Shown piece by piece: positions 7,018-44,827 of a DNA stretch of 64,000 bases. Both the position numbers and the translations under genes were made by a program. The notes under the pieces were generated by a model. The model saw only the letters and a program-made list of their open reading frames with translations, ran no database searches and was not told the DNA's origin. Source of the stretch: Nanobdellota archaeon (GTDB lineage Archaea > Nanobdellota > Nanobdellia > Pacearchaeales > GW2011-AR1); contig DUKY01000013.1 in assembly GCA_013329055.1 (NCBI GenBank), forward strand, positions 1,587 through 65,586, in the 5' to 3' direction. Each line of letters begins with the position of its first letter. The first letter of the stretch is position 1.

Positions 7018-7367
7018 GTGATATCCAAGAAGGCTCAAAAAGATATCACCCTTCCATGTTTCGAAGAGATTCAAAAAGAACCAAGGGGTTCACATTCTAT
7101 GTGGCATCCACAGAGGCTCCGAAAGTTTACACTTGCATAATATTCTGAAAGCAAATTTTAAAAGTCGCAAGTGTGGGCTTGAGTTTAAAGATACCACCGA
7201 ACCGCAATTTAAGGAGATTCAAAAGAAACCAGCAGGTGTCTTTTACGCACGACAACATCAATTTCAAAAAACATAATTGTCGTGCTTGTGGCATTTACGA
7301 AGGCTCAACAAAATGCCACCGCTCCACAATTCGAGGAGATTCAAAAAGAACCAACGGGTTCTTTTTA
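7018..7367 (+). repeat. mosaic structured repeat block: A, an A interrupted by module C, B, A
   Basis: Hairpins gtgatatc/gatatcac (7019-7026/7042-7049) and gtggcattt/aaatgccac (7289-7297/7312-7320). Module C (7121-7185) sits between the halves gtggcatc (7102-7109) and gataccac (7191-7198). Module B is the gcacgacaa..ttgtcgtgc hairpin at 7246-7286. The block is near-identical to parts of 15124-15670 and 44326-44827. Confidence 0.9.
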
Positions 7368-8213
7368 TCCGAATATCAACCCAGCAATTGCCGAAATAAA
7401 GAAAGACATAAACATCAACCAGAAAGAATGTTTAACACCAGACTTAACTCCACCACCGGAAAGTTTACCTATCGCAAGACCACTAAAAAAACCTTGCACT
7501 AATAACAGATATAAAAATGAACCAGTAAAAGATTCACCTTGTGAACCATTACCACCAGCAACATTCGGGCTACTCAAACCTTGATTAGTAATATCACCGG
7601 TAAATGCAATACCTTCAACCAAAGGTAAAATTTTAAATTGCATAACCAAAATAATAATTGTAAAAACAAAAAAGATAATATAACCTTGAACAACTAATGC
7701 AGAAATATTTGCTTCTCTTTCTTTTCTCAACTTATCTGAAGTATTAACAGCACCAGCAACAGCCTCTAAAATTTCGCCAATATCTCCCCCAGCCCTTTCA
7801 GCCTGACCAATTAAAGTTATTGAACGAGAAATTGATTTATTCCCAATATCATCTGCAAAAGTCTTAAACGCAGTATTTAATGCAATACCCAAAAGGATTT
7901 GATTAGCTAATTTTTTAACATGTGGACTCAAAACACCATAAGACTTATCTTTAACATTAGTAATACTTTTACTAATAGGATTTCCAGCCTTAACACTTTC
8001 AACTAAATTCCTCGCGAATTCTAAAAACATTTGTTCTTTTTCCCGCTCAACACGAGTTTCATACATAATTCCCAATACAAAAGGCAAAACACCAACTAAA
8101 ACCGCAACACCCATCAAAACAAAAAAAGCTTTAGTCTCCATAAGATAAACAGCTAAAGCTAAGATTAAAATTGAACTTCCTATAGCGACCCAATGTATTG
8201 CGGTTGTTTTCAT
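7365..8213 (-). CDS. type IV pilus/archaellum platform protein, FlaJ/PilC-like T2SS-F domain (second half)
   Basis: 282 aa, polytopic, with one T2SF-like domain (..SISRSITLIGQAERAGGDIGEIL..). The last codons, FG-stop, lie inside the repeat block. Confidence 0.65.
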   Translation of the reverse strand: MKTTAIHWVAIGSSILILALAVYLMETKAFFVLMGVAVLVGVLPFVLGIMYETRVEREKEQMFLEFARNLVESVKAGNPISKSITNVKDKSYGVLSPHVKKLANQILLGIALNTAFKTFADDIGNKSISRSITLIGQAERAGGDIGEILEAVAGAVNTSDKLRKEREANISALVVQGYIIFFVFTIIILVMQFKILPLVEGIAFTGDITNQGLSSPNVAGGNGSQGESFTGSFLYLLLVQGFFSGLAIGKLSGGGVKSGVKHSFWLMFMSFFISAIAGLIFG

Positions 8214-8369
8214 TTTTTTTTTGTTTCCTCACTCCGTTAAAAATGAAAATTAGAAATTTCTAATTTCTTTATTTTCATTTTTTTTATTGTTTCCTCATTC
8301 AATAAAAATGAAAGCTAAAAATTTTTTCAAAAATTTTTTTGTTTTCATTTTTTTTCTTGTTTCCTCTTT
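8214..8369 (-). promoter_or_regulatory. triplicated ribosome-binding/start region with two mini-ORFs
   Basis: On the minus strand GAGGAAACAA-N-AAAAAAAATGAAAA occurs three times. The ATGs are at 8348 (17 codons, MKTKKFLKKFLAFIFIE), 8278 (13 codons, MKIKKLEISNFHF) and 8213 (the real gene, MKTTAIHW). Confidence 0.6.
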
Positions 8370-9773
8370 TTATTCGTTAGATTGTTTTAAATGTAAAAAT
8401 GTCAAAAAACCAACATTGACAACAGATACACCTAAAACCATTATTAAAGTAATCATTGAAGTACTTAAAGACACCCCTAACCCGCTTATTTTCATCATCA
8501 TCAATAAAAGCATTAAAATCATCGGAGCAGCAATAACAACACTAATATAAATATCCATAAAAGTTTCAGCAGACTTTGTTTGTTTTTCTCTGTCAAGACG
8601 ATAATCAAAAAGTAAAGTTTGCGATCTTTTTTCGAAAAATTTTGTTAAATCACCACCGGAAGTAATTGTCGTCGCAAGACCATTAAATAATTCAGACAAT
8701 TTCGCACTAGGACTATGATATGCAGCATTTCGTAAAGCACTAACCAAATCATGACCATAAACATTAACTTCATTAATTATTTTAGTAAATTCTTTTTCTA
8801 AAAAGGGATAATTTTTCGTCGTCAGCATAATTTGAAAAATTTTACTAGGATCAACCATTGAACCGGCAATAGCAGACATATGAATAGTTGCAAAAGGCAA
8901 TTCACGATTAATCCCTGTTTCAATTGAACTTTTTTCTAAACTAGGATAAACATACATTAAAAGGAAAGTACCAATAGGAGCTGCAAAAATAATCCAAAAT
9001 GTTTTAATAAATCTATCAAGAATAGAACTATTCATAAGAGTAATTATCGGTAATTCAGGACCAATATTAAAAAACAAAAAAAACACAAACAAAAAAATAC
9101 CGATGAAAAAGGCAATCATTGTAGTAAGTAGCATAACAGAAATATAACTCATGGGTAAAAACTCTAAATTTGCCCGAATCAAATCCAATTTTAAAGTTTT
9201 AAAAAAATCATTCTTTTCCATAACTTTCGCTCGCTTTACAAAAAGAGAATTCGCAAATTTAACATATTTACTCGGAGTTTTTTCCATTTTTACAACAACA
9301 TCTTTTTTCTTATTAAGAAGATTCTTCAAACTTGCTTTTTCCAAATCAGTAATCCCTTCATGAAGTTTTTTTAAATCCCCACGAGAAAGTTTATTTTGAC
9401 GTGACTTTAAAGTTACTTTTTGTTTTTCTTCTTCTAATTTTACAGGAGTAATATTATTAAGATCTTTAATTTTATTAAACTGAGCTTCATCAAACTCAGA
9501 AAAATCACCGCCGATTTTTGAAGAAATTCCTAAATCAACTTTTGATAATTTTAAAGGCTGAACAAAATTAATATTATTAAGATGAACAGGAAATTTTTGA
9601 TTAACTAATTTTAAAGACTTTTTTAATTCCTCAACTTGAGATAAAGCCATTGTTTTTTCAGTTTTATCCTTCAAATTTTTCATATCTTTAAAAATTGAAT
9701 TAATTTCTTTAACAATTTTTTTTTGAGTTTTAATATCCTCCTTCATTGAACTAAAATCATTTGGAAGAGTCAT
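8370..9773 (-). CDS. type IV pilus/archaellum platform protein, FlaJ/PilC-like T2SS-F domain (first half) with a long soluble N-terminus
   Basis: 467 aa. The C-terminal half has TM segments and a T2SF-like core (..GHDLVSALRNAA..LFNGLATTITSGGDL..). Confidence 0.65.
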   Translation of the reverse strand: MTLPNDFSSMKEDIKTQKKIVKEINSIFKDMKNLKDKTEKTMALSQVEELKKSLKLVNQKFPVHLNNINFVQPLKLSKVDLGISSKIGGDFSEFDEAQFNKIKDLNNITPVKLEEEKQKVTLKSRQNKLSRGDLKKLHEGITDLEKASLKNLLNKKKDVVVKMEKTPSKYVKFANSLFVKRAKVMEKNDFFKTLKLDLIRANLEFLPMSYISVMLLTTMIAFFIGIFLFVFFLFFNIGPELPIITLMNSSILDRFIKTFWIIFAAPIGTFLLMYVYPSLEKSSIETGINRELPFATIHMSAIAGSMVDPSKIFQIMLTTKNYPFLEKEFTKIINEVNVYGHDLVSALRNAAYHSPSAKLSELFNGLATTITSGGDLTKFFEKRSQTLLFDYRLDREKQTKSAETFMDIYISVVIAAPMILMLLLMMMKISGLGVSLSTSMITLIMVLGVSVVNVGFLTFLHLKQSNE

Positions 9774-15081: not shown

Positions 15082-15123
15082 TTTAATTTACTTTTTAAAA
15101 TAAATCAATTAATTAAACATTTG

Positions 15124-15670
15124 CAAAAAATGCCACCCTTCAAGTATTCGAGGAGGTTCAAAAAAAAACAAGGGGTGTCTTTTACGCACGACAACATCAA
15201 TTTCAAAAAACATAATTGTCGTGCTTGTGATATCCAAGAAGGCTCAAAGAGATGCCACCCTTCAAGTATTCGAGGAGGTTCAAAAGAAACCAAGGGGTGT
15301 CTTTTACGCACGACAACATCAATTTCAAAAAACATAATTGTCGTGCTTGTGATATCCAAGAAGGCTCAAAGAGATGCCACCCTTCAAGTATTCGAGGAGG
15401 TTCAAAAGGAACCAAGGGGTGTCTTTTACGCACGACAACATCAATTTCAAAAAACATAATTGTCGTGCTTGTGGTATCCACGAAGGCTCAAAAAGATATC
15501 ACCCTTCCATGTTTCGAGGAGGTTCAAAAGGAACCAACGGGTGTCTTTCATGCACGACGGAATTAATCCTAAAATATAATCGTCGTGCTTGTGGTATCCA
15601 CGAAGGCTCAAAGAGATGCCACCCTTCAAGTATTCGAGGAGGTTCAAAAGGAACCAAGGGGTTCCTTTTA
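15124..15670 (+). repeat. tandem array (about 4.5 units, 122-nt period) of structured modules A+B
   Basis: The landmark tgccaccc/tatcaccc recurs at 15131, 15253, 15375, 15497 and 15617, giving periods of 122, 122, 122 and 120. Each unit has hairpin 1 (GUGRYAUY/RAURYCAC, 16-nt loop), a second helix (ACCCUU..AAGGGGU) and the hairpin B gcacgaca/tgtcgtgc. The fourth B copy has the compensated stem cacgacg/cgtcgtg. Confidence 0.95.
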
Positions 15671-15705
15671 GTAGACTCTGAGGTTTGCTCATAATTAATA
15701 AAAAA

Positions 15706-15928
15706 GCTACCTTCACCCATTCTCAGCTCTGCTACCTGCTAAGCACCTTATCAAATGTTTAGGGCTGCTTGGTTCCCCACCTGACCCAGTTCGCATCTGC
15801 AAGATCAAAGCAGACAAAGCGTCAACGTCTGGAATAAAGACTTTTTTACGCATTAATCACGCCCCTCATTGCAGCTTGCCATAAAGCCCGTTTGCAATAA
15901 AGCGGAGGGCTAATCCGCTACCTAGTCT
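15706..15928 (-). ncRNA. signal recognition particle RNA (7S/SRP RNA), short form; ends approximate
   Basis: The minus strand reads ..CUGGGUCAGGUGG-GGAA-CCAAGCAGCCC.., matching the universal helix-8 motif (compare E. coli 4.5S GGUCAGGUCC-GGAA-GGAAGCAGCC). The segment is much more GC-rich than its surroundings. A TATA-like cttaaatagtataatt lies upstream and a T-run at 15700-15705 lies downstream. Confidence 0.75.
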
Positions 15929-15983
15929 ACAAAAATATAGAATAATTATACTATTTAAGATTAACTAAACCAGAAAACTCTTC

Positions 15984-18900
15984 TTATTTATTAGCTTCTT
16001 CAACAATCTTTGACTTAGCCAATTTTTTATCTTTTTCTTCCTTAACTAAAGGACCAACCACCTTAACAAATAATCCAGGTAACCCTGCACCAATTGGAAC
16101 AGGCTGGTTCAAAATAATATTTTCAATAACACTAGTCAATTTATCTTGAGTACCCTTAATTGAAGCATTAACAAATTGTTTATCCGGAGTTTCAAAAGTT
16201 GCCCTCGCTAAAATTGAAGATTTCTGAGTAATAATACCCATACGAGTTACACCCTTAACAATACCATTATCAGTCATAGCATCAGCAATTAACTTTGAAT
16301 GCCTGTAATCAATATCTAAACCTTGAGAATTTAATACCTCAACAACTTCATTAATAATTAATTGTCTGGCAGCCTCAATACCGAAAACTTTTGCAACTTC
16401 ATAAAAATCATTAGAGATTAATCTATATTTGTCAACTTCCTTTAACTTTAACATCTCCTTTAAATTTGTACCAAGAGTAATAATAACAAAATCCTTGTTT
16501 CGTTTAACAATTAAAATTTGTTTAACACCCTTAACACCAGAAATAATAGTTGCTTTAAGCTTCTCTTTTAATTTATAAATTTCCCTAAAACTATATTCAG
16601 AAGCATTCAAAGTAATTGAATCAGCTTGTTCATTAACATTAAATCCAAGATCATTTAATCTTTCAACAACTTTCTTAATAGTAGTATGAGTTTGTTTCAA
16701 TCCTTTTTTATCAATAACAATTTCAATTTTCTTGTTGCTAAAATCTAATTTAACTTCAGAAGAAATTTCTTTTAATGTAACTTCCTTGATTTTCTCAGCA
16801 AATACCCTTGCATTTCCTTCATTATTAAACTCTTTATCTAAATAAATTTCCATCTTCGGAGAAGAAGGAGTTTTTCTGGCATCAAAAATTTCAATAATTC
16901 TAGGTAAACCACTTGTAACCTGCATTTCAGCTACACCAGCCATATGGAAAGTGTTCAAAACCATCTGAGTTGAAGATTCACCAAATGACTGAGCAGTAAT
17001 AATACCAATAGCTTCACCCGGAGCAATTTGTCCGTCTTTATGAATTTGTGAAACATCTATACCATCATCGCCAAATTGGAATTGAATAATTCGATTATTA
17101 CTATCTCTTACAGTACCATCATATTCAACCCTTAAATCTTGTAAAGCATTAGCAAGTCTACGGTATAAATAACCAGACTTTGGAGTACGTAAAGCAGTAT
17201 CCATAAGTGAATCTCTACCAGTAATCGCACCAAAGAAAAATTCATCAGGTCTTAAACCTTTAATGAATGGACTATTAATAAATCCTCTAGCCTTTGGAGA
17301 TAAATCTCCTTTCTCGAAAAATGATAATGTTCTTTCATTATAACCTAAATCAATTCTTCCGCCACGTAATACCTGCTGACCAACACAACTAGCCATCTGA
17401 GTAATATTCAAAATATTACCACCACCACCAGACTTAATCATATGATTAACAGCGTTAGTTTCAAGGAATTCTTTTTTAACTAATGAACCAACCTTTGTTC
17501 TTACTTCATTTAATATCTTCAAAATTTGAATCTCTCTTGATTCTTCCGCAGTTTTACCAGGAATAATTTCTAATTTACCAGCGTTATATAAATCTAAAGT
17601 TTCCTGAGTTTTTTCTTCAGCATCCTGAATAATTTTTTTACCGGCATCAACAACTCTCTTATCCAAATTTAAATCCTCAACAGAAAGTGTAATACCCCTA
17701 TTTGATAAATAATTTTTACCTAAATTGAAAGCTTTCTTAATAGTTTCAAAAGTCTCCATTCTTCCAACAGTTTTATCTAACTCTTTGATAAGTTCCCCGC
17801 TTCCACCGCCAAATGCAGTTTTATCAATAATACCGCCGGTAATTTCACCTTTCTTAATAGTAATAGAATCATTTACAAAATCAATTTTTGGTAAAATTTT
17901 CGAAAATAATTCTAAACCAGAGATAGATTTTTTAGTGCATTCAAAATCAACACCAGATTGGAATAAAAGTTGATTTGCATCTTCTTTTGAAAATTCATGT
18001 CTACCCAATAAATATCCACCGGTAATAGCATCAACTTCACAACCCATAAAATTAGTATTGTTCTTCGGAGAAATTAAATTTTGTTTAACATCCAATAACA
18101 CTTTTGCTTCAGCTCTCGCTTCTTCAGTTTGAGGAGAATGAATATTCATTTCATCACCATCATAATCCGCATTATAAGGAGAAGCAACAGCAGGATGCAT
18201 TCTGAATGTTTTGCCTGGAAGAATCTTAGCATAGTGTGCCATTAAACTTCCTTTATGCAAACTTGGATGTCGGTTAAATAATACAATATCACCGTCCTGT
18301 AAATGTCTTTCAACTTTATATCCGACACTAAGCTCATTCATAATTTCTTCTTTCAATTCTTCAGTAATTTTCTTTCTTTTTCCATCAGTTCTAATAATAT
18401 AATTTGCTCCCGGATATTTATCTGCAGTTTCAATTAATTTTTTTAATTTTTCTAAATTTAACTCAGTAACAGTCTCGGCAACAGTAACAATTTTAGCAAT
18501 TTGGAAAGGAATACCAACTTCATTAATTTCAATTGATGGATCAGGAGAAATAACTGTTCTTGCTGAATAATTTACCCTTTTACCAGCTAAGTTCTTTCTT
18601 AATCTTCCCTCTTTACCCTTAATTCTCTCAGTAATAGTTTTTAATGGTTGACCGCTTCTATGTCTTGCAGGAGGAATTCTTGCAACACTATTATCAAAGA
18701 AAGTAGTAATATGGAATTGCAATAAATCCCATAAATCTTCAATAATAACTTCAGGTGCACCAGCATTCAAATTCTCCCATAATCTTTGATTTGCACGAAT
18801 AATATCAGAAAGTTTATGAGTTAAATCATCCTCACTTCTTTCCCCCGATTCTAAAATAATACTCGGTCTAACAGTTACAGGCGGAACAAGCAACATAGTT

Positions 18901-19469
18901 AAAATTGCCCACTCAGGTCTACAAGTTCGAGGATTAACCCCAACTTTTCTTAATTCTTCATCAGTAATATTCACTAAAATTTCTCTAATCTCAGTCGGGA
19001 AAACTCTTGTTTTATCTCGATAAAAACTAGTAGGCTTATCTAACTTAATTTTAACCTGCTCATTTTGACAGTGAGGACATTTTTTGCAATCTTTAGCTTT
19101 TTTTGCCCTTTCAGCAGGAGAAAGTTTGGTTAAAAATTTATCATCAAGCATTAACTTTCCACAATCACTGCAAAAACATCTTAAGCATAATTCAATTAAC
19201 GGAACATATTTCAAATGAATAACAGCCCTTGCCAAATCAATACTTCCAGGATGACCTAAACATTCTTTTATTCTTCCACCGCAAGTTCTACACCTAACAC
19301 CGGGATCAATTGCACCAAGTTTTAAATCCATTAAACCACCATCTACTGGATATCCGTCGATATTATATAATTCAGGAGTAACAATTTTTGCTGATGAAAG
19401 TCTTTTAATTTGTTCAGGACTAAGTAAAGTAAAATTCAATGCTCCAATCTTTTTTCTTATCGGTTTCAT
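15984..19469 (-). CDS. rpoA: DNA-directed RNA polymerase subunit A, with A-prime and A-double-prime parts in one ORF
   Basis: 1161 aa with an N-terminal zinc motif (CRTCGG..C.GH), the catalytic NADYDGDEMN (aa 433-442), and the bridge helix/trigger loop AQSFGESSTQMVLNTFHMAGV (aa about 826-846) in the same frame. Confidence 0.9.
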   Translation of the reverse strand: MKPIRKKIGALNFTLLSPEQIKRLSSAKIVTPELYNIDGYPVDGGLMDLKLGAIDPGVRCRTCGGRIKECLGHPGSIDLARAVIHLKYVPLIELCLRCFCSDCGKLMLDDKFLTKLSPAERAKKAKDCKKCPHCQNEQVKIKLDKPTSFYRDKTRVFPTEIREILVNITDEELRKVGVNPRTCRPEWAILTMLLVPPVTVRPSIILESGERSEDDLTHKLSDIIRANQRLWENLNAGAPEVIIEDLWDLLQFHITTFFDNSVARIPPARHRSGQPLKTITERIKGKEGRLRKNLAGKRVNYSARTVISPDPSIEINEVGIPFQIAKIVTVAETVTELNLEKLKKLIETADKYPGANYIIRTDGKRKKITEELKEEIMNELSVGYKVERHLQDGDIVLFNRHPSLHKGSLMAHYAKILPGKTFRMHPAVASPYNADYDGDEMNIHSPQTEEARAEAKVLLDVKQNLISPKNNTNFMGCEVDAITGGYLLGRHEFSKEDANQLLFQSGVDFECTKKSISGLELFSKILPKIDFVNDSITIKKGEITGGIIDKTAFGGGSGELIKELDKTVGRMETFETIKKAFNLGKNYLSNRGITLSVEDLNLDKRVVDAGKKIIQDAEEKTQETLDLYNAGKLEIIPGKTAEESREIQILKILNEVRTKVGSLVKKEFLETNAVNHMIKSGGGGNILNITQMASCVGQQVLRGGRIDLGYNERTLSFFEKGDLSPKARGFINSPFIKGLRPDEFFFGAITGRDSLMDTALRTPKSGYLYRRLANALQDLRVEYDGTVRDSNNRIIQFQFGDDGIDVSQIHKDGQIAPGEAIGIITAQSFGESSTQMVLNTFHMAGVAEMQVTSGLPRIIEIFDARKTPSSPKMEIYLDKEFNNEGNARVFAEKIKEVTLKEISSEVKLDFSNKKIEIVIDKKGLKQTHTTIKKVVERLNDLGFNVNEQADSITLNASEYSFREIYKLKEKLKATIISGVKGVKQILIVKRNKDFVIITLGTNLKEMLKLKEVDKYRLISNDFYEVAKVFGIEAARQLIINEVVEVLNSQGLDIDYRHSKLIADAMTDNGIVKGVTRMGIITQKSSILARATFETPDKQFVNASIKGTQDKLTSVIENIILNQPVPIGAGLPGLFVKVVGPLVKEEKDKKLAKSKIVEEANK

Positions 19470-23427: not shown

Positions 23428-23553
23428 GAACCTATAGCTCAGTCTGGTTAGAGCGCCGGTCTTATATGAACTTAATCCATTTAGGATTATTTTATCTCAA
23501 TAGATACAGTCTAAGAGAGCCGGAGGCCCTGAGTCCAAATCTCAGTAGGTTCA
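23428..23553 (+). tRNA. tRNA-Ile (anticodon UAU) with a 51-nt intron at the canonical 37/38 position (23467-23517)
   Basis: Manual fold. Acceptor gaaccta/taggttc; D arm gctc-agtctggtta-gagc; anticodon stem ccggt/gccgg; loop c-t-TAT-a. A central 4-bp helix cuua/uaag flanked by 3-nt bulges (ua|u and ag|a) forms a bulge-helix-bulge. T arm ctgag-tccaaat-ctcag; discriminator a. No CCA is encoded. Confidence 0.8.
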
Positions 23554-26635: not shown

Positions 26636-26793
26636 AATATCACCACAATTGAGGAAGCTCAAAAACTTCAAAAGTATCGTCTTTTGAACGCGTTTAAATT
26701 TCAATGAAATTTAAATGCTAAAAATCTTTGATTTTTATGTCCCAGAAAATTTAATTCTACAAATTTTCTGAGGAAACCAGCGGGTGTCTTTTA
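26636..26793 (+). repeat. mosaic repeat: module A 3' part interrupted by hairpin modules G, H and others
   Basis: atatcaccacaattgaggaagctcaaaa | cttcaaaag-tatcgt-cttttgaa | tttaaatttca-atg-aaatttaaa | taaaaatc-tttg-attttta | cccagaaaattt..aaattttctgagg | gaaaccagcgggtgtctttta. The outer parts join up as in the PolB copy of module A. Confidence 0.8.
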
Positions 26794-26794
26794 T

Positions 26795-27028
26795 CTAGGA
26801 AAGTCTAACTAAACCTTTAGCCAATCTATGAGTTCCAATTAAAAGAAAAAAACCCAAAAATAATGATACCCAAAGGCTTAAAACAAGATTAGAAGGAAAT
26901 AAATAAATTTCAGACAAACCCCAAATGCCTCTCCAAAATGAAACTACTGCAAAAACCCCAATAAAAGCAAAAAGAATTTGGTGAGAAGATTTCATCTGCT
27001 TAAACAATTTATGTGTTTTATGAATCAT
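26795..27028 (-). CDS. small membrane protein
   Basis: 77 aa with two TM helices. The stop lies 2 nt from the end of the repeat. Confidence 0.4.
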   Translation of the reverse strand: MIHKTHKLFKQMKSSHQILFAFIGVFAVVSFWRGIWGLSEIYLFPSNLVLSLWVSLFLGFFLLIGTHRLAKGLVRLS

Positions 27029-27423: not shown

Positions 27424-27463
27424 AATCTTTTATTCTATAATGATTATATAAAACTTTCAATTT

Positions 27464-27650
27464 AAAAGTGTGTTAATAATTAAGATTTAACGGCTAAAAG
27501 GCAAATCATTAATAATGATTTTGGGGCGAGTAACTTCGTGGTAGAAACGATAATCCACAAAGTTTCGTGCGAGGTTACGAGAATGTGGGAAAAATTCAAT
27601 ATTAAAATGGGGATTTGTTAAAATCTTAAAAACAATTTTTCAAAAGAAAC
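27464..27650 (+). repeat. composite repeat J-E-F-I
   Basis: J is aaaagtgtgttaataattaagatttaa. E is ggctaaaaggc-[aaatcatt..aatgattt]-tgggg. F is gtaacttcg-tggtagaaacgataatccacaaagtttcgtg-cgaggttac. I is gggatttgttaaaatcttaaaaacaatttttcaaaagaaac. All have counterparts in 47610-48215. Confidence 0.8.
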
Positions 27651-27708
27651 AAGAAGATTACTTTCAATTCTAATACATATTTAAATATTCCAAATCATTT
27701 TTAAAATA

Positions 27709-30270
27709 ATGAAAACAAAATTCATTCCAATTGACTACGATTACTTTGATTTTAAAGGAAGAAATTACATTAAAATAATTGGCAGAGACGACAATCAAAA
27801 AAGAATTTGCATTATTGACACCTGCAAAGTTTACCTCTGGGCAATACTTGAAGAAAATTTAAAAAAAGATCAAATTGAAAAAATAATCGATAAAATAAAA
27901 AAAATAAAAATTGAATTAAAGGGAAGAACAACAAAAATTGATTCAGTTGAACTCCATGAAAAAAATTTCATGGGAAGAAAAGTTAAAGCACTCAAAATTT
28001 TTGCAACAAACTATAAAGATCTTCACGATGTCGCAGATAAATTAGACATTAAAGAAATAACAAATAGAAGGGGATATGATTTAGGATATATTACACATTA
28101 CATAATTGAAAAACAAATTAAACCTCTTAATTGGTATGAAATTTCAGGAGAAGTTTTAAACAATTCATTAGAATTTGGAGGAATTGATATGGGACTTGAC
28201 GTTGACATTTGTATAAAACTTGAAACTTCAAAAGAAATAAAAGACCAGCAATTTAATCCAAAAATTTTAGCTTATGACATTGAAACAGATGAATTACAGA
28301 TAGGCAAAGGAGAAATTTTAATGATCTCATTAGTCAGCGAAAATTTCAAAAAAGTAATTACATGGAAAAAACCTCAAAATTTACAAAAACATCGTGACAT
28401 TACAGGAGGCTCAGAAAAATGTCACCGTTCAGAACTTCGAGGAAGCTCAAAAGAAACCAGCGGGTGTCTTTTAGAATCTATAGAATTTGTAAAAGACGAA
28501 GCAGAACTAATAGAAAAATTTATAGAACATGTAAGAAAAATTTCTCCGGATTTTTTAGTAGGTTATTATTCAGACGGATTTGATTTACCATATATTCAGG
28601 CACGGGCAGAAAAGCATAAAGTAAAACTAGCACTGGGGTTAGATGATTCACAACCCAGATTTTCAAGAGGGATAGAACTCACAGGAAAAATAAAAGGAAT
28701 CACACATATTGACATATTAAAATTCATCAGAACAGCATATGCCCAATATATGAAATCCGAAACACTTTCATTAAACGAAGTTGCAAAAGAATTTTTACAG
28801 GACACGAAAATTGATTTTGAATTAAAACACTCTTCAAAAATAGAAGACCATAATTGGGAGAAGTATTATGAATATAACTTACAGGATTCAATTTTAACAT
28901 TAAAACTTTTCGAAAAGTTTTGGCCGGATTTATTAGAATTTACAAAGATAACAAATGAACCAATCTTCGATTTATCACGTGCAGGATTATCAAAATATAT
29001 GGAATCTTATATCTTGCAAAACTTAAATAAATTTAATGAAATCCCACAAAAAAGACCTGGATACAATGAAATAAAAGAAAGGCAATCAAGTGGTGGAGTA
29101 GAAGGAGCATTTGTCTTAGAACCCAAACCAGGACTTTATGAAAATATCGCAATGTTTGATTTTACATCTATGCATACAAGTATAATCATAACACACAATA
29201 TTTCAGGTTCAACTTTATTAGAAAAAAAAGAAAAAAATTGTTTTGAATCCCCTGAACTGGAATTGCAGGGAAAAAAAACAAAATTTTATTTTTCAAAAGA
29301 AAAAGGATTTTTCCCGTCATTATTAGAAGAATTATTTAACAAAAGAAAACAATATAAAGCAGAATATAAAAAAAATAAAAATTCAATTACACTTGCAAGA
29401 AGTAATGCATTTAAAGTTCTTTCAGCTTCAGCACACGGCTATTTAGGATTTTTTGGAGCACGATATTATTCTATTGAATCTTCAGCATCAGTCTTAGCAT
29501 ATGTAAGAAAATTTAATATAGAGACAATAGAAAAAACAGAAAAAAAAGGATATCAGGTGATTTATGGCGATACAGATTCAATAGCATTTTTAATGAATGG
29601 AAAAACAAAAGAAGAAATAAAAGAATTATTGCAATACTTAAATGACGAACTTCCGGGAGTAATGCATTTAGAACTTGAAGGATTTTTTAAAAGAGGTTTG
29701 TGGGTAACTACACGAGGAGGAACAACAGGAGCAAAGAAAAAATATGCCTTGCTTGATGAAGAAAATAATTTGAAAATAAGAGGATTTGAAACAGTAAGGC
29801 GTGATTGGTGCAGATTATCCCGGGACATACAAAATAAAATTATAAGACAGATATTAAAAGACGGGAATGAAATCAAAGCTCTTGAATCTGTCAAAGAGCT
29901 AATTAAAAAAATTAAAGAACGAAAAATTGACAAAAAAGATTTAATGATTAGAACACAACTAAAAAAACCAATTTCAGAATATAAAGCTATTTCACCGCAT
30001 GTTATCGCCGCGAAAAAAATGAAAGAACAGGAAATCCCGGTTACACAGGGAGATTTAATAGAATATTATATAGCTGAAACAGAAAACAAAAAAGCAAAAC
30101 TTGTTAGAGAAAAAGTAAAACTTCCAAATGAAAAAGGAGAATACAACATTGAATATTATCTTGAAAAACAAATTTTACCGGCAGTAGAAAATATTTTTCA
30201 TGTATTTAAAATAAATATAAAAGAAATAATTGACGGAAAAAAGCAGGATAATTTAAATAAATGGTTTTAA
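27709..30270 (+). CDS. polB: family B DNA polymerase
   Basis: 853 aa with Exo I LAYDIETDE, Pol A DFTSMHTSIIITHN, Pol C VIYGDTDSIAF and a C-terminal PIP box QDNLNKWF. Confidence 0.95.
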   Translation: MKTKFIPIDYDYFDFKGRNYIKIIGRDDNQKRICIIDTCKVYLWAILEENLKKDQIEKIIDKIKKIKIELKGRTTKIDSVELHEKNFMGRKVKALKIFATNYKDLHDVADKLDIKEITNRRGYDLGYITHYIIEKQIKPLNWYEISGEVLNNSLEFGGIDMGLDVDICIKLETSKEIKDQQFNPKILAYDIETDELQIGKGEILMISLVSENFKKVITWKKPQNLQKHRDITGGSEKCHRSELRGSSKETSGCLLESIEFVKDEAELIEKFIEHVRKISPDFLVGYYSDGFDLPYIQARAEKHKVKLALGLDDSQPRFSRGIELTGKIKGITHIDILKFIRTAYAQYMKSETLSLNEVAKEFLQDTKIDFELKHSSKIEDHNWEKYYEYNLQDSILTLKLFEKFWPDLLEFTKITNEPIFDLSRAGLSKYMESYILQNLNKFNEIPQKRPGYNEIKERQSSGGVEGAFVLEPKPGLYENIAMFDFTSMHTSIIITHNISGSTLLEKKEKNCFESPELELQGKKTKFYFSKEKGFFPSLLEELFNKRKQYKAEYKKNKNSITLARSNAFKVLSASAHGYLGFFGARYYSIESSASVLAYVRKFNIETIEKTEKKGYQVIYGDTDSIAFLMNGKTKEEIKELLQYLNDELPGVMHLELEGFFKRGLWVTTRGGTTGAKKKYALLDEENNLKIRGFETVRRDWCRLSRDIQNKIIRQILKDGNEIKALESVKELIKKIKERKIDKKDLMIRTQLKKPISEYKAISPHVIAAKKMKEQEIPVTQGDLIEYYIAETENKKAKLVREKVKLPNEKGEYNIEYYLEKQILPAVENIFHVFKINIKEIIDGKKQDNLNKWF
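28375..28473 (+). repeat. module A copy inserted in frame in polB
   Basis: Hairpin gtgacatt/aatgtcac (28394-28401/28418-28425, 16-nt loop acaggaggctcagaaa) followed by ccgttcagaacttcgaggaagctcaaaagaaaccagcgggtgtctttta. It is translated as ..GGSEKCHRSELRGSSKETSGCLL... Confidence 0.85.
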
Positions 30271-33648: not shown

Positions 33649-33779
33649 GCTCTGCCCAGAGTTTTTGATTTTAGCTAACTTTTGGCAATTCAAATATTTA
33701 TTAAGGGCGGGCCTTTCGACAAATGTCGAAACTTGAAGTGGGAATCCTAAAATCAAAAAAACCTAATTCTGGACAGAGC
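33649..33779 (+). repeat. module D copy bounded by imperfect inverted repeats (MITE-like)
   Basis: The left arm gctctgcccagagtttttgattttag (33649-33674) is the imperfect reverse complement of the right arm ctaaaatcaaaaaaacctaattctggacagagc (33747-33779). The core is ttggcaattcaaatatttattaagggcggg-[tttcgaca-aa-tgtcgaaa]-cttgaagtgggaatc. Confidence 0.8.
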
Positions 33780-33824
33780 CGACCAAACAGATTCTTTAAA
33801 AAAGGGATTATTCTTAATAATTTT

Positions 33825-34913
33825 ATGAGTTTTCAAAAAATACCGGAATTAAAACCATTATATTTGGAAAGAATAACGTCAATATTAAACAACAAAGAAG
33901 ATTTAAAGAAATATTTAGAAATCTTAAAAATTCAACCTGTTAAATCAATTAGATGTAATACATTAAAAATTTCAGTTGAAAAATTAAAAGAAGTTCTTGA
34001 AAAAAAAGGATGGGTTATATCTCAACCATGGAAAGACTTTCCTGAAGTAATGATTGTTGAAGGTAAACTTCAGGATTGTGGCATTACAGGAGGCTCAACA
34101 AAATGCCACCGTTCAGACCTTAGAGGAAGTTTGAAAGAAACCAGCGGGTGTCTTTCACCTGAAGTAATGATTGTTGAAAATCAATTAGAACCTGGAGAAT
34201 TAGGTCGGTCACTAGAACATTTATTAGGTTATTATTACATTCAGGAACTTTCAAGTATGTTGCCAGTAATTGCACTTCAACCAAAAGAAGGAGATATCAT
34301 TTTAGATTTATGTGCCGCACCGGGAAGTAAAACAACACAAAGTGCATCTTTAATGCAAAATAAAGGAACAATAATTGCAAATGAAGTAAATATGGGAAGA
34401 TTAATGGTTTTAGCATCAAATCTTGAAAGATGCGGAGTAACAAATACAATAATCTCAAGAAAAGATGGATCAGCATTATGCAAAAAATTCGCAAATGGAG
34501 AAATCAAATTTGACAAAATTTTAGTTGATGCACCATGTTCAGGAGAAGGAACATTAAGAAGTTCAAGACAAACTTATCTTATGTGGAATATAAAAACAAT
34601 CCAGCAATTATCAAAATTACAAAAACAATTATTCAAATCAGCATTCGAGATATTAAAAATAAATGGAGAAATGATTTATTCAACCTGCACTCATGCACCG
34701 GAAGAAAATGAAGAAATTGTTAGTTGGGCATTAGAGGAATTTAAAGACCAAATAAAAATTGAAAAAATTAATTTGCCAATAAAACCCAGACAAGGATTAA
34801 CAAAATGGGAAGATAAAGAATATTTCGAAGAAGTAAAATATAGTTGCAGAATTTATCCGCAGGATAACAATACAGAAGGATTTTTTCTTGCAAAATTCAA
34901 AAAAATAAAATGA
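33825..34913 (+). CDS. NOL1/NOP2/Sun-family RNA cytosine-C5 methyltransferase
   Basis: DLCAAPGSKT, ILVDAPCSGEGTLR and IYSTCT motifs. The start is trimmed to MSFQKIPEL (ATG 33825) because the upstream extension lies in repeat D. Confidence 0.85.
   Translation: MSFQKIPELKPLYLERITSILNNKEDLKKYLEILKIQPVKSIRCNTLKISVEKLKEVLEKKGWVISQPWKDFPEVMIVEGKLQDCGITGGSTKCHRSDLRGSLKETSGCLSPEVMIVENQLEPGELGRSLEHLLGYYYIQELSSMLPVIALQPKEGDIILDLCAAPGSKTTQSASLMQNKGTIIANEVNMGRLMVLASNLERCGVTNTIISRKDGSALCKKFANGEIKFDKILVDAPCSGEGTLRSSRQTYLMWNIKTIQQLSKLQKQLFKSAFEILKINGEMIYSTCTHAPEENEEIVSWALEEFKDQIKIEKINLPIKPRQGLTKWEDKEYFEEVKYSCRIYPQDNNTEGFFLAKFKKIK
34041..34178 (+). repeat. module A copy inserted in frame in the methyltransferase gene, flanked by a 21-bp direct duplication
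   Basis: cctgaagtaatgattgttgaa occurs at 34041-34061 and again at 34158-34178 (offset 117 nt, 39 codons; the protein shows PEVMIVE twice). Between them lie the hairpin gtggcatt/aatgccac (34078-34085/34102-34109) and ..aaagaaaccagcgggtgtctttca. Confidence 0.9.
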
Positions 34914-39922: not shown

Positions 39923-40112
39923 AAAAAAAGTGTGCTTAATAATAAAAATTTAATTTTTGATTAACTTATTGGAAATTCAAATATTCTTAAGGGCGGGTCT
40001 TCAAGCTTTAGCTTGAACTTGAAGCGAAAGTCTACATTTGCATTAATTCCAAAGGTAAAATTGAAAAAAGCAAGTGTGGACTTGAGTAGGGAATCTCAAA
40101 AATCTAAATTTT
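39923..40112 (+). repeat. composite repeat: J, then module D carrying a nested module C
   Basis: J is aaaaaaagtgtgcttaataataaaaatttaa. D is ttggaaattcaaatattcttaagggcggg-[ttcaagct-tt-agcttgaa]-cttgaag. C (cgaaagtctacatttgc..gcaagtgtggacttgagta, 40025-40088) is inserted before gggaatc. The flanking inverted repeat is aaaaatttaatttttga / tcaaaaatctaaatttt. Confidence 0.8.
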
Positions 40113-40835: not shown

Positions 40836-40839
40836 AAAA

Positions 40840-43074
40840 TTATTCTTCCTTCTTCACAACTTTTTTCTTTTTCTTAACCTTTTCTTTAGGAAGCATTTTC
40901 ATCAAATCATTCATATCAGGCATCTTAGGATTTTCAGACCTTGCAGGTTCTTTTTGCTTTTTTAATTCAGCAAATGCTTTCTTGAAATTTTCTCCATCAA
41001 CAATCATTTTAGACATATCTTTTAACAAATAATTTTTCTTAATAGCATTAATACCGGCATTACGAACTAAAGCCTCAATATCAGCACCACTCCAACCATC
41101 CATTTCCTTAAGCATACCATTAACATCTATATCTTTTGCTAAAGGCATATTACGAGTATGAACCTTGAAAATTTCTTCACGAGTTTCTAAATCTGGTAAA
41201 CCTAATTCAACATGTGAATCAATTCTTCCAGGACGCAAAATTGCAGGATCAATTAAATCTTTTCTATTAGTCGCCGCAATAATCATAACATTTTCTAACT
41301 CCTCAACACCATCAAGCTCAGTTAATAATTGGTTCACAACCTTCTCAACAGCATCATTGCCATTTCCACCACCACGAGGTTTTGAAATAGCATCAAACTC
41401 ATCAAAGAAAATAATTGAAGGGCTTACCTGTTTAGCTTTCTTAAAAATTTCACGAACATGCTTTTCACTTTCACCAACCCACTTGCTAATCAATTCTGGA
41501 CCCTTAACAGAAATAAAATTAGCATTCGCTTCTGTTGCAACAGCCTTAGCTAAAAGAGTTTTACCGGTTCCAGGAAGACCATAAAGTAATACACCCTTGC
41601 TAGGTTTAATACCCGCAGCACGATAAAGTTCAGGACGTAATAAAGGCAATTCAACTAACTCACGTAATTTATCCTTAGCTTCTTTAAGACCACCAACATC
41701 TGTCCAATGAACATTCGGTTTCTTGATTAAAACTTCCCTCATAGCAGAAGGCTCAATTTGTTTTAACGCCTCGATAAAATCATTTCTATAAACTTTAATT
41801 TTATCTAATTCTTCAGCAGGAAGTTTTTCATCCAAATTTTTAAATTTCTTTAAATTAGGCTTCAATGCTTTTAATGCAGCTTCCTTGCATAAAACTTCTA
41901 AATCAGCACCAACATAACCAATAGTCTTATTTGCCAATTCATCAAAATTAACATCATCCCCTAACGGCATGCCACGAGTATGAATCTGTAAAATTTCTTT
42001 TCTAGCATCTTCAGCAGGAGGATTAATTCTTAATTCCCTATCAAATCTTCCAGGACGCCTTAATGCAGGATCAATATCATCAGGCCGGTTTGTCGCAGCC
42101 ATCACAACAATTTGTCCCCTTGATTTTAAACCATCCATCAAAGTTAATAATTGAGCAACAATTCTTTTTTCAGTTTGATCTGTCCCCTCGCCACGTTTCG
42201 GAGCAATAGAATCAATTTCATCAATAAAAATTATTGAAGGAGCATTTTTATCAGCCTTCTCAAAAATTTCCCGAATATGTTTTTCACTTTCTCCATAATA
42301 CTTGCTCATAATTTCAGGACCGGCAATTGAATAAAATGAGGCATCAGTTTCAGTAGCAACAGCTCTGGCTAAAAGAGTTTTACCAGTACCAGGAGGACCG
42401 GTTAATAAAACACCCTTTGGAGCACCAATACCAAGCTTCTCAAAAATCTCAGGCTGTTTCATAGGTAATTCAACCATTTCACGAACTAATTCAATTTCAT
42501 CTTTTAATCCGCCAATATCTTCATAATAAATCCCAGGAGTTTCACTCTCACCGGAATAAACTTCTTCAGAAAGAATAAATTCAGTTAAAGGCGTAACAAC
42601 AACACTACCTTTAGGCTCAGTTTTTGAAACAATATATTTTAACTTATTTCCGCTAGCCAAAATAGTTAATTTTTGTTTAGTAGTCAATGGAAGATCTAAA
42701 AATTTAGAATGCAAATAACCACTTGATTCCTTACTTAATCTTATTTCTTGCAAAGGTGCCAAAGTAACATTTTTAGCTTCTTTAACAACTACTTTTTTAA
42801 TTTCAACTTCTTCCTCAATTGAAACACCAATATTACTTCGAACATTACCATCCAAACGAATTTTACCGATAGAATTATCCCCGCCAAGTGCACGAAGAAC
42901 TTTAACAACTAAAACATTTTTTCCTTTAAGTTCAACTAAATCACCGGGAACAAGCCCAATTTTTTCCATATCTTTTGAAGAAATTCTCGCAATACCTTTA
43001 TCAACATCTTCTTGTAAAGATTCGTAAACCTTCAAAAAATATTTCTCTTCTTTTGTATTTTTTTCATTTGTCAT
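40840..43074 (-). CDS. cdc48: CDC48/VCP-type AAA+ ATPase (paralog 1)
   Basis: 744 aa with the N-domain ([16 protein letters not shown]), two AAA modules (Walker A GPPGTGKT and GLPGTGKT) and SRH regions. Confidence 0.9.
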
Positions 43075-43472: not shown

Positions 43473-43490
43473 TAATTATTAACTCCTTAT

Positions 43491-43526: not shown

Positions 43527-43590
43527 TTTCGCCGAATTAAAAGATATTTCTAAAAGAATTATTGCTTAGCAAATTCAAGTTAAAAAATTT

Positions 43591-43702
43591 GGGTTTTGTT
43601 AAATCTTAAAAACAATTTTAAAAAAACTTCAAAAGTATCGTCTTTTGAATGTCCCAGAAAATTTAATTCTACAAATTTTCTGAGGAAACCAGCAAGTTTT
43701 TA
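43591..43702 (+). repeat. mosaic repeat I-G-H plus a degenerate module A 3' end
   Basis: gggttttgttaaatcttaaaaacaatttt.. | cttcaaaag-tatcgt-cttttgaa | tgtcccagaaaattt-aattctac-aaattttctgagg | aaaccagcaagttttta. The final tta is the vapC stop codon on the minus strand. Confidence 0.75.
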
Positions 43703-44071
43703 CTTAACAAATTCCACATTATCCAAATCCCTAAATTCCTTATCTCCGGTTAAAAATTTAACCCCATGCATCTTTGCCAAAACATAACCAATGCAATCTA
43801 TATAAGACAATTTTCGTTTTTTATAAAATAATTTAAGTTCATTAGCTTTCTTAATTACATCATCAGAAATATCAACTGCAAAAGGCAACAAAAGAGAATA
43901 ATAAAAATCCGCCTCATTTTTGCTTAAATTTCTTAACAAAATATAATGCAACTCCATAAGATTTAACCTTGTAGTTATCACCTTAACATCAGAGACATAA
44001 GAAAGATAATTTTTATTTTCCTTAACAATCTCAATAAAAGCATAAGTATCAAAAAAATAAGCTAATTCCAT
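43700..44071 (-). CDS. vapC: PIN-domain ribonuclease toxin
   Basis: 123 aa with N-terminal FFDTYAFIE (first PIN acidic residue) and a later D in FLTGDKEF. It overlaps the upstream antitoxin ORF. Confidence 0.7.
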   Translation of the reverse strand: MELAYFFDTYAFIEIVKENKNYLSYVSDVKVITTRLNLMELHYILLRNLSKNEADFYYSLLLPFAVDISDDVIKKANELKLFYKKRKLSYIDCIGYVLAKMHGVKFLTGDKEFRDLDNVEFVK

Positions 44072-44277
44072 CCTTTCCTTGCTTCATCCTTTAATTTCTG
44101 CCCACTTTTTTTAAGTTTACCTTTTAATGAACCATACACATTACTTAAATCAGCATCATAAACCAGATTAATTCTAATCTCATCATTTTCCTTTAAATCC
44201 TCTTTCTTCACCAATTCCTTTGGTAAAATAATCCCAATAGAATTTCCCCATTTCTTAACTTTAACTTTAATTACCAT
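44062..44277 (-). CDS. vapB: AbrB/SpoVT-family antitoxin
   Basis: 71 aa: VKVKKWGNSIGIILPKELV, a swapped-hairpin motif. Confidence 0.7.
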   Translation of the reverse strand: MVIKVKVKKWGNSIGIILPKELVKKEDLKENDEIRINLVYDADLSNVYGSLKGKLKKSGQKLKDEARKGWN

Positions 44278-44325
44278 AATTATACAAAGTATAACTTTAT
44301 TTAAATATTGCGGTGAAAGAAGTAA

Positions 44326-44827
44326 AAAAATTTAATTCTACAAATTTTCTGAGAGAACCAACAGATTCACATTCTATGTGGCATCCCAAGAAGGCCGAAA
44401 GTTTACACTTACATTAATCCCAAAGGTAAAGATAAAAGCTGTAAGTGTGGGCTTGAGTAGAAAGTTTACACTTGCATTAAATTCTGAAAGCAAATTTTAA
44501 AAGTTGCAAGTGTGGGCTTGAGTAAAGATATCACCGCTCCGCAATTTGAGGAAGCTCAAAAGACCAAGGGTGTCTTTTACGCACGACGACATGAATTCTA
44601 AAATATAATCGTCGTGCTTGTGGCATCCAAGAAGGCTCATAAAGATGCCACCCTTCAATGTTTCGAGGAGGGTTAAAGGGAACCAAGGGGTGTCTTTTAC
44701 GCACGACAACATCAATTTCAAAAAACATAATTGTCGTGCTTGTGGCATCCACAAAGGCTCATAATGATGCCACCGAACCGCAATTCGAGGAGATTCAAAA
44801 AGAACCAACGGGTTCTTTTTATCCGAA
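44326..44827 (+). repeat. large mosaic repeat block: H fragment, an A interrupted by two tandem C modules, then B, A, B, A
   Basis: The stem halves gtggcatc (44378-44385) and gatatcac (44527-44534) are separated by C copies at 44397-44458 (stem acacttac/gtaagtgt) and 44459-44523 (acacttgc/gcaagtgt). The following B hairpins are cacgacga/tcgtcgtg and cacgacaa/ttgtcgtg. An intact A hairpin is gtggcatc/gatgccac at 44620-44627/44644-44651. Confidence 0.9.

Follow-up and report, generated by a model that had tools for sequence, protein, structure and literature searches.

A previously undescribed family of modular hairpin repeats of about 85 bases in a DPANN archaeon

Introduction

This paper describes a hairpin-forming repeat in a 64-kb stretch of a contig assigned to a Nanobdellota archaeon (GenBank assembly GCA_013329055.1, contig DUKY01000013.1). 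The whole of this stretch is called the window here, and positions are those of the window. The repeat is a previously undescribed family of modular hairpin repeats of about 85 bases, and it occupies about 2% of the window. A sequence-only reading of the window had reported dispersed copies whose stems differ and still pair, and had proposed that the structure is under selection. No description of the element was found in the literature searched. The closest described systems are several families of short palindromic repeats, one class of mobile tRNA introns, and two classes of miniature transposable elements.

Rickettsia palindromic elements (RPE) are short multicopy palindromes that have non-coding copies and are also often found within unrelated essential genes, in frame, adding a conserved hydrophilic peptide to the protein (PMC10969869). 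The repeat resembles RPE in its in-frame copies in unrelated genes, its stop-free palindromes, and its additional non-coding copies. It differs in having an archaeal host, a sequence that is unrelated by description, and a unit of about 81 nucleotides, compared with about 150 for RPE. It also differs in being modular with nested hairpins, in occurring in tRNA introns, in having a terminator-like end that supplies stop codons, and in its recurrent gain and loss at one site in the gene for the family B DNA polymerase (PolB).

BOX elements are composed of modules A, B, and C, and some SPRITE elements are terminator-like (PMC10969869). Like the bacterial REP/BIME, BOX, SPRITE, and Correia elements, the repeat has interchangeable hairpin modules, lies after the 3' ends of genes, shows mutual insertion, and has terminator-like ends. 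Unlike for REP, which are bacterial, no RAYT and no conserved 5' tetranucleotide were found for it. We know of no REP/BIME, BOX, SPRITE, or Correia element that is translated in frame at a conserved polymerase site.

Among archaea, the MJRE1-3 repeats of Methanocaldococcus jannaschii, said to have been described by Suyama, Lathe and Bork in 2005, are reportedly palindromic and mostly extragenic, with a few copies in open reading frames (ORFs) that keep the frame. The repeat shares with them archaeal palindromes and in-frame ORF copies. A search of 185,579 species genomes with the pattern of hairpin 1, defined below, matched only a Nanoarchaeia metagenome-assembled genome (MAG), at 14 loci, and one unrelated contig; at that stringency, therefore, the repeat is not of the MJRE family. 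To our knowledge, MJRE have not been reported in tRNA introns or in tandem modular arrays.

In the Thermoproteales, tRNAs of different specificity have near-identical introns, which implies that introns were gained as DNA (Fujishima et al. 2010, as cited in PMC4090602). The repeat likewise places near-identical sequence in tRNAs of different specificity. It differs from those introns in that the shared sequence is only part of the intron, always occupies the 5' edge, is antisense, and is far commoner outside tRNAs.

PATE, the haloarchaeal miniature elements derived from IS200/IS605, are without terminal inverted repeats or target duplications, have hairpins at their ends, and are strand-specific. 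The repeat differs from PATE in that no TnpA or TnpB similarity is shown for it and it has no conserved target motif. As for a classical miniature inverted-repeat transposable element, the small size, multiple copies, and presence/absence polymorphism (at the PolB site) hold for the repeat, and the terminal inverted repeats fail.

Structure of the Repeat Unit

The core of the repeat, defined here as the A unit, is 79-84 nucleotides in length. It contains (left to right) a pyrimidine-rich lead-in ATTCYAT, hairpin 1, a conserved single-stranded UUCGAGGA, and a terminal hairpin (H3). Hairpin 1 is composed of an 8-bp stem and a loop that holds a conserved RAGGC. H3 is composed of an A-run, GAACC, a 4-5 nucleotide loop, GGTTC, a T-run, and a final A, with A4-5 and T4-5 in the runs, and its sequence is AAAAAGAACC - AACG - GGTTCTTTTT. 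The A unit begins with ATTCYAT and ends with GGTTCTTTTTA, without terminal inverted repeats in the alignment of 80 copies described below (alignment A1). All of its palindromes are internal.

A further helix, helix 2, pairs CCGUU with AACGG. Because its 3' strand is the loop of H3, helix 2 and H3 are mutually exclusive. They are alternative conformations, and both co-vary. The sequence-only reading had described three helices preserved across the copies. The helices are indeed kept, but not as a single joint fold.

Three extra hairpins (C, B, and D13) lie either within the loop of hairpin 1, within the stretch that precedes H3, or between one unit and the next. Hairpin B joins successive A units, and D13 is placed between TTCAAAA and GAAACC. 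The stems of module C are present as reported, although the module is not a separate unit at 7100-7200 and 44376-44540, where it is nested in the loop of hairpin 1.

Rfam covariance models gave no match to the repeat at the gathering threshold, and E values up to 10 gave chance-level matches only. A tRNA-like or T-arm resemblance of GGTTCAAAAGGAACC was rejected. The inner hairpin is without covariation support, and positions 72 and 73 pair with positions 88 and 87.

Covariation and Selection on the Fold

Copies were collected without selection on their stems, by scanning metagenomes with the pattern TTCGAGGARNTTCAAAARNAACC from the unpaired middle of the unit. Copies were found on 74 contigs, many of them from groundwater, with the Hainich wells as a source of many copies, and the viral contigs scanned contained none. 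Alignment A1 consists of 80 distinct full-length copies from the window, from a syntenic soil MAG ('Candidatus Nanoarchaeia archaeon SMAG_U8054', the sister MAG), and from the 74 metagenome contigs. It was made with MAFFT, and structure was not used.

Across the three helices of A1, 95.3% of cells pair, compared with 86.1 +/- 0.4% in shuffled alignments (0 of 500 shuffles reached the observed value). When the partners were slid by 1-3 columns as a control, pairing was 40-58%. The covariation score is 0.352, against 0.183.

Hairpin 1 shows changes on both sides at 7 of its 8 pairs and has 15 distinct fully paired arm combinations, which include GCGATTTC/GAAATCGC, GTGGCATC/GATGCCAC, GTGATATC/GATATCAC, and ACAATTTC/GAAATTGT. 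Helix 2 has double changes at 3 of 4 pairs. Its second pair (columns 46-81) is G-C in 51 copies and C-G in 18, with A-U and U-A also present, so that the C:G to G:C swap seen by the sequence-only reading is borne out. The 13-bp stem of module C is re-written yet paired in the metagenome loci L033 and L024 and in the window at 40026.

H3 is paired in 94.6% of cells of A1, with double changes at columns 72-88 and 73-87. Its co-variants are GGAACC/GGTTCC, AGAACC/GGTTCT, and GAAACC/GGTTTC, and co-variation is perfect at two pairs. RNAalifold and single-sequence folds pick hairpin 1 and H3, not helix 2. H3, which the earlier reading missed, is better supported than the helices that it named.

The copies at one site in the PolB gene were compared across seven lineages of about 70% protein identity. 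The hairpin 1 arms differ (GTGACATT/AATGTCAC, GCGACTTC/GAAGTCGC, GCGGCTTT/AAAGCCGC, and GCGACTTT/AAAGTCGC), and all are perfectly paired. H3 is re-written to GCGAGAGAAAC/GTTCTCTCGC in three of the seven copies. These compensated stems are the strongest evidence for selection on the fold. Since the helices are kept by compensatory change, the fold, as a single-stranded nucleic acid, is or has been under selection. This upholds the central proposal of the earlier reading.

The individual window stems that it listed were also recovered. In hairpin 1 these are gtgatatc/gatatcac (7019), gtggcattt/aaatgccac (7289), gtggcatc/gatgccac (44619), gtgacatt/aatgtcac (28393, in PolB), and gtggcatt/aatgccac (34077, in the methyltransferase gene nop2), as well as the array stems at 15470 and 15590, where gtggtatc pairs with gatatcac or gatgccac. 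Hairpin B switches between cacgaca/tgtcgtg and cacgacg/cgtcgtg (15547, 44576). Module C switches between acacttgc/gcaagtgt, acacttac/gtaagtgt (44397), and gtctacatttgc/gcaagtgtggac (40026). The statement that hairpin 1 always pairs applies to most copies, but the array copies at 15226 and 15348 have gtgatatc/gatgccac, with an A.C mismatch on the + strand.

Strand of the Fold

The strand that folds bears on a reading in which the repeat is a host-functional structured RNA module, with its fold selected for the host. Such a module might be a + strand small RNA gene, composed of hairpin 1, a single-stranded UUCGAGGAG 'seed', and a terminator hairpin with a U-tail. It might also be a cis-acting 'punctuation cassette' that provides a stop codon and a bidirectional terminator and might also act as a promoter where the next gene downstream is leaderless. 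We regard this reading as possible, though rather unlikely.

Module C favors the + strand. It has three invariant U.G pairs, which are C.A on the other strand, and folds at -20.1 kcal/mol, compared with -13.9 kcal/mol on the - strand. Helix 2 leans the same way, with 22 G.U against 4 A.C. Both biases agree with a host RNA, as do the nesting of extra hairpins in loops only and the near-invariance of the single-stranded motifs. Hairpin 1 speaks against it, being without strand bias (14 G.U and 13 A.C), as does the whole A unit, which is slightly more stable on the - strand (-27.2 kcal/mol) than on the + strand (-22.4 kcal/mol). The relatives of the element in tRNA introns and in an rRNA spacer are transcribed antisense, which also disfavors a + strand RNA. 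Wobble asymmetry compared between the tRNA-intron copies and the rest gave no clear pattern.

The earlier proposal that the + strand is the folded form is favored by module C and helix 2; hairpin 1, the energy of the A unit, and the antisense tRNA and rRNA copies do not favor it. Fold-energy z-scores do not discriminate between the strands for either the A unit or the whole cluster. The values on the + and - strands are -2.2 and -2.4 for one unit, and -4.4 and -4.0 for the cluster at 7 kb.

Host and Copies in the Window

The G+C content is 26-35% per 2-kb window and is mostly about 29%. The nearest relatives of the PolB protein carry Nanoarchaeota or Pacearchaeota labels, and the sister MAG is syntenic with the window, with 93-96% nucleotide identity in the flanking genes. 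On these two grounds the host is a DPANN archaeon.

Window copies were located by a sequence-only nhmmer search. It identified 13 A units, seven copies of hairpin B, four of hairpin C, and three copies or fragments of D13 (26660-26795, 43641-43698, and a weaker piece at 44327-44364), all on the + strand. The orientation is + at all eight sites (two-sided p ~0.008). The copies at 26636-26795 and 43641-43698 are additional to those reported earlier. The copies are as follows.

7013..7369, + strand, composite cluster; first A unit at 7013-7091
7102-7109 (5' arm), 7121-7183 (module C), 7191-7198 (3' arm), and the rest to 7246, + strand, second A unit of the 7-kb cluster
7242-7286, + strand, module B of the 7-kb cluster, then its terminal A unit at 7283-7369, ending GGGTTCTTTTTA
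15129..15672, + strand, tandem array with a 122-nucleotide period; left-truncated A unit at 15129-15185, then B/A repeats
15181, 15303, 15425, and 15549, + strand, B modules of the 15-kb array
15222-15307, 15344-15429, 15466-15551, and 15586-15672, + strand, A units of the 15-kb array
26636..26795, + strand, A unit without the 5' arm of hairpin 1; D13 (CCCAGAAAATTT..AAATTTTCTGAGG) inserted between TTCAAAA and GAAACC
28392..28474, + strand, A unit inside the PolB gene, in frame, 27 codons, RDITGGSEKCHRSELRGSSKETSGCLL
34042..34179, + strand, nop2 copy with flanks; A unit at 34076-34158, in frame
40026..40086, + strand, solitary module C hairpin, GTCTACATTTGC..GCAAGTGTGGAC
43641..43698, + strand, solitary D13-type hairpin, ending GAAACCAGC
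44313..44823, + strand, composite array with a D13-like piece at 44327-44364
~44379 (5' arm), 44397-44457 and 44460-44522 (two C modules in the hairpin 1 loop), and 44523-44579 (remainder), + strand, A unit of the 44-kb array
44576-44618 (B'), 44615-44700 (A), 44696-44740 (B), and 44737-44823 (terminal A), + strand, rest of the 44-kb array

The genes that these copies enter or adjoin include the following.

7365-8213, - strand, FlaJ-like gene
15669-15932, - strand, archaeal signal recognition particle (SRP) RNA (Rfam Archaea_SRP, 89.1 bits, E 1.9e-20, under the gathering score of 96.5)
26795-27028, - strand, small membrane-protein ORF
27709-30270, + strand, PolB gene
33723-34913, + strand, nop2/RsmB-type methyltransferase gene

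The SRP RNA is a neighbor of the 15-kb array and lies outside the repeat proper, with its 3' end directly at the array's right end. The 122-nucleotide array yields three overlapping ORFs of 104-112 codons in three frames (15121-15694, + strand), which are artefacts of stop-free repeats. The nop2 copy is flanked by a 21-nucleotide direct repeat, cctgaagtaatgattgttgaa (34042-34062 and 34159-34179), and the first nucleotides of this direct repeat have their complement in a 7-nucleotide segment, CTTCAGG, at 34069-34075.

In-Frame Copies in PolB and nop2

The copies in PolB and nop2 are read through in the same frame (..RS..RG.SKETSG.L). In 117 full-length PolB homologues, the length at this site is 11-12 residues in 92 and at least 30 in 13. 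Most of the 13 long inserts are recognisably the same translated element (..GG.E.SRRS..RGSSKETSGCL..). The carriers are scattered, and their nearest relatives are usually without the insert (for example, P0048 versus P0060, 93% identity). In the pair P0053 and P0059 (94%), P0059 keeps only a shorter remnant. On a neighbor-joining tree, the insert requires at least 12 gains or losses, with an empty root state. The DNA of six carriers was compared; the helices are kept, the sequences differ, and the T-run is interrupted in all six, so that only the window copy keeps TTTTA. The element is also present at the same nop2 site, in the same frame, in metagenome locus L088.

These copies cannot be independent small-RNA genes, and the patchy presence between relatives that are 93-94% identical likewise argues against a host RNA. 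The occupation of common sites in distant lineages is a point in favor of one.

Stop codons are absent from five of the unit's six reading frames in 43-64 of the 80 copies, compared with 14-20 in shuffles, and the sixth frame starts with TAA. The copies are related, so this depletion of stop codons amounts to about one observation on the consensus.

Two further observations concern the PolB genes. In L095, a tyrosine-recombinase (phage integrase family) gene at 1-304 directly precedes the insert-bearing PolB gene with a 4-nucleotide overlap. The PolB homologue P0116 is 1223 residues long and has precomputed matches to PF14528 and PF14890, which we take to be intein-associated families. If so, the PolB family would harbor another type of selfish insert, unrelated to the repeat.

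Copies in tRNA Introns

The reverse complement of the element begins 0-2 nucleotides past position 37 in genes for tRNA-Thr, tRNA-Gly, initiator tRNA-Met, tRNA-Lys, tRNA-Glu, and tRNA-Ser. These introns are 89-136 nucleotides long. Of 17 introns tested, 15 show the canonical bulge-helix-bulge geometry of archaeal splicing, and these belong to five tRNA species (Thr, Gly, initiator Met, Glu, and Ser). In the fitting introns the anticodon stem forms, and nucleotides 32-35 form a 4-bp helix with the intron (complete in 14 introns and with 3 of its 4 pairs in one). They have a 3-nucleotide 3' bulge of the 'aa|A' type and lack the inner helix h', which is the relaxed form of the motif. The two tRNA-Lys introns fall outside this geometry, probably because of an offset in the geometry script. 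ARAGORN missed every element-bearing tRNA in the 20 loci scanned. A split tRNA, with a 5' half ending at the element, was considered and rejected, because complete tRNAs with the introns of 89-136 nucleotides were found.

These positions invite a reading of the repeat as a mobile bulge-helix-bulge intron. It would be cut from tRNA, rRNA spacer, and mRNA by the tRNA splicing endonuclease and the ends re-ligated, so that the copies in ORFs would go untranslated. In several tRNA species, the copies are placed precisely at the 5' splice site of a canonical 37/38 intron, and the central helix and 3' bulge are correctly formed. One copy begins 2 nucleotides past the 3' end of 16S rRNA, the site of archaeal processing stems, and short complementary flanks are found at the nop2 copy and at a copy in a gene encoding 'MITYNDIYEA'. 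Transposition of tRNA introns has been reported for Thermoproteales (PMC4090602, citing Fujishima 2010).

The repeat itself occupies only the 5' edge of the introns, and the bulge-helix-bulge nucleotides lie in the 15-35 nucleotides of extra intron sequence. This suggests that the repeat is a passenger in an intron that was already there. A search for bulge-helix-bulge-like geometries near the PolB and nop2 copies gave 6 and 12 matches, compared with a mean of 5.2 at random sites (88% of which have at least one), so that they are no commoner there than at random. All PolB and nop2 copies retrieved keep the frame without stop codons, which splicing would not need. For these reasons translation is likelier than splicing at these two sites, and we consider the intron reading very improbable.

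Copies at Gene Ends and Starts

It is the right end of the element (GGTTCTTTTTA, with TTTTA), and not the left, that meets functional boundaries to the base. The TTA of the element is the TAA stop codon of a convergent gene in 12 distinct contexts. Two of these are in the window, where the terminal A units of the 7-kb and 44-kb arrays supply the stop codons of the FlaJ-like gene (7365-7367) and of a CDC48 gene at 44819-47173, - strand (44819-44821). The stop codon is at most 2 nucleotides from the element in 8 further contexts. The ORF at 26795-27028 is another close case, with the adjoining unit, which ends GGGTGTCTTTTA, 2 nucleotides short of its stop codon.

In all, H3 and its T-run abut 20 stop codons of protein genes, the SRP RNA, a 16S rRNA, and one tRNA 3' end. 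The element lies directly after the SRP RNA, on the opposite strand, in the window, and sequence comparison suggests the same arrangement in three other lineages. In the rRNA operon of L067, the small-subunit rRNA (4550-5995) is followed at its 3' end by the element (5995-6086), then by a tRNA (6200-6309) and the large-subunit rRNA (from 6602). In L063, the element directly follows the tRNA 3' end. Within arrays, a perfect H3 with a T-run is confined to the terminal unit. In the 15-kb array this is GGGGTTCCTTTTA in the last A unit, which abuts the SRP RNA 3' end.

The H3 hairpin with its T-run at gene ends is probably a bidirectional transcription stop, which would be the likeliest use to the host. 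A scan with bacterial promoter and terminator models flagged one H3, and is not informative for an archaeon.

Gene starts are also found at the element. Ten genes start straight after it (TTTTA-ATG), and a tRNA-Val begins 0-2 nucleotides past its right end. Genes start directly at the element end, so any promoter must lie inside it, and TTCAAAAAG is present at -28 to -20. These starts favor a host-functional RNA module, as does the restriction of the full hairpin and T-run to the last unit of an array, which is what a single + strand transcription unit would have. On the other side, TTCAAAAA is a poor TATA box for a genome of 29% G+C.

A more speculative reading, which we consider improbable, is a self-spreading 'gene punctuation cassette' that folds as a single strand. 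Its 81-nucleotide unit would bring a stop codon, a bidirectional terminator, and a promoter for leaderless genes, with helix 2 and H3 acting as a switch. It would move by a strand-specific hairpin mechanism without a known transposase, and would home to the PolB loop and to the 5' splice sites of tRNAs.

A separate arrangement was seen at a gene starting MITYNDIYEAARKERYSEQLQ. A second copy of its first 10-11 codons lies upstream, fused to the reverse complement of the element (L065, ~7700-7900). The resulting upstream ORF is about 43-48 codons long and is open in five lineages (L065, L025, L052, L062, and L079). Its TGA overlaps the true start codon (ATGA), an arrangement suggestive of a leader peptide or of coupled translation.

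Turnover and Proposed Mode of Spread

In the window and the sister MAG, the flanking genes are about 95% identical, but the arrays at 6.7-7.4 kb and 43.5-44.8 kb do not contain the same modules or the same number of them. The terminal unit beside the CDC48 stop codon is the only unit common to both. Module B is identical (45/45) at three loci of the window. The PolB and nop2 copies of the window are 88% identical to each other, which is above their match to same-site copies in other lineages. These three observations indicate copying or conversion within the genome, so that some of the 'compensatory' pairs may have moved as a pair and not arisen through successive single substitutions.

All contexts are accounted for most simply if the element is mobile. 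In this account, which we favor with moderate confidence, it is a modular, non-autonomous palindromic repeat of the RPE/MJRE/BIME kind in Pacearchaeota/Nanoarchaeota-type DPANN archaea. Spread would take place at the DNA level, either through a strand-specific, hairpin-forming single strand or through recombination between copies. Compensatory changes would be selected if the fold is required for mobilisation or maintenance. Copies would survive where they do little harm, namely in hydrophilic surface loops of ORFs, in introns and spacers that are removed, and directly after stop codons. At gene ends, H3 and the T-run would act as the bidirectional transcription stop. The earlier reading had concluded that the structure is under selection. 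This stands for the fold; it does not stand for a host function as opposed to the element's own propagation, as the family behaves like a mobile or recombining repeat.

Several observations weigh against this account. No transposase was found among the 20 annotated ORFs of the window, and A1 shows no terminal inverted repeats. In 71 contexts, direct repeats of the right flank do not exceed the length seen in controls (median 7 nucleotides), and no consistent target-site duplication was found. Arrays, the nop2 copy of the window (21 nucleotides), and the 'MITYNDIYEA' gene (about 32 nucleotides) are exceptions, and a duplication of 2-3 nucleotides (TA/TTA) is not separable from background in DNA so rich in A+T. 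The same tRNAs, the PolB site, and the nop2 site are occupied in distant lineages, and these insertions could be old and functionally retained. The loop-only nesting, the conserved RAGGC, and UUCGAGGA look like parts of a functional RNA or a protein-binding site. A pure terminator role leaves the ten genes that start straight after the element unexplained, and because a T4-T5 run also lies within introns of essential tRNAs, H3 would at most be a leaky terminator. Ascertainment may account for part of the in-frame rule, as only intact PolB proteins were retrieved. Finally, concerted evolution could move both hairpin arms together, which would inflate the count of independent compensatory events.

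A general plan of target repeat, complement, element, and target repeat was considered for the insertions and rejected. It is striking at nop2 and 'MITYNDIYEA', and the 71 contexts are at control level.

Under another reading, the repeat is a DNA-level hairpin or cruciform site for a chromosome-organising, replication-linked, or recombination protein, and is REP/RAYT-like or derived from IS200/IS605 (PATE-like), acting on one strand of single-stranded DNA. In its favor, the eight window sites share one orientation irrespective of the way the neighboring gene runs, and copies within any one locus also agree in orientation. The element is hairpin-based, is without terminal inverted repeats, and clusters at gene 3' ends, like REP/BIME. 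G.T-containing stems, which are typical of REP/PATE-type single-stranded DNA substrates, are also counted for it. No Y1 transposase or TnpB is present among the annotated ORFs, which cover part of one 64-kb window. At neither end is there a conserved flank motif or target tetranucleotide, and no RAYT was seen in the genome, which is incomplete. The orientation also tracks the majority gene direction, and replication and transcription are inseparable here. The uniform + orientation thus fits either a strand-specific single-stranded DNA mechanism or the majority gene direction, and we judge the DNA-site reading doubtful.

Other Features of the Window

An archaeal signal peptidase is also among the annotated genes. 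Two paralogous CDC48-type AAA ATPases are encoded at 40840-43074 and 44819-47173, both on the - strand and spaced by 1.7 kb. Their internal domain repeats explain the repeat-scan families D4-D6, D9, and D16. RNA polymerase A' and A'', which are separate genes in most archaea, are fused in a single ORF of 1161 residues (15984-19469, - strand). A tRNA at 23428-23553 (+ strand) has an intron of about 50 nucleotides without the repeat, and was found by Rfam and missed by ARAGORN. A PIN-domain (VapC-like) ORF at 43700-44071 (- strand) adjoins the 44-kb array, and the sister MAG has unrelated sequence in its place. The ORF at 47163-47582 has a weak MazE/AbrB-like match.

A second repeat cassette of about 230 nucleotides is present at 27460-27700 and 47900-48150, upstream of the PolB and signal peptidase genes. 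It contains a strong hairpin, GTAACTTCG..CGAGGTTAC (repeat-scan families D14, D15, and D17). The cassette is about 90% conserved in the sister MAG and is also found in L001, L012, L014, and L015. It may represent a promoter region common to the two genes, or else a further small RNA.

Significance

For annotation, repeats of this kind create spurious ORFs, lengthen proteins, hide tRNAs from standard finders, and break assemblies. The genomes of DPANN archaea rank among the smallest and most compact of cellular genomes, and here a structured repeat sits in the replicative polymerase, an rRNA/tRNA methyltransferase, several tRNAs, and the rRNA operon of such a genome. If the repeat is mobile, these copies are rare documented in-frame 'selfish' insertions in archaeal core genes, and the patchy PolB site is a natural series of occupied and empty sites for tracing movement. 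If it is used by the host, it would reveal how gene ends, and possibly gene starts, are marked in ultra-small genomes.

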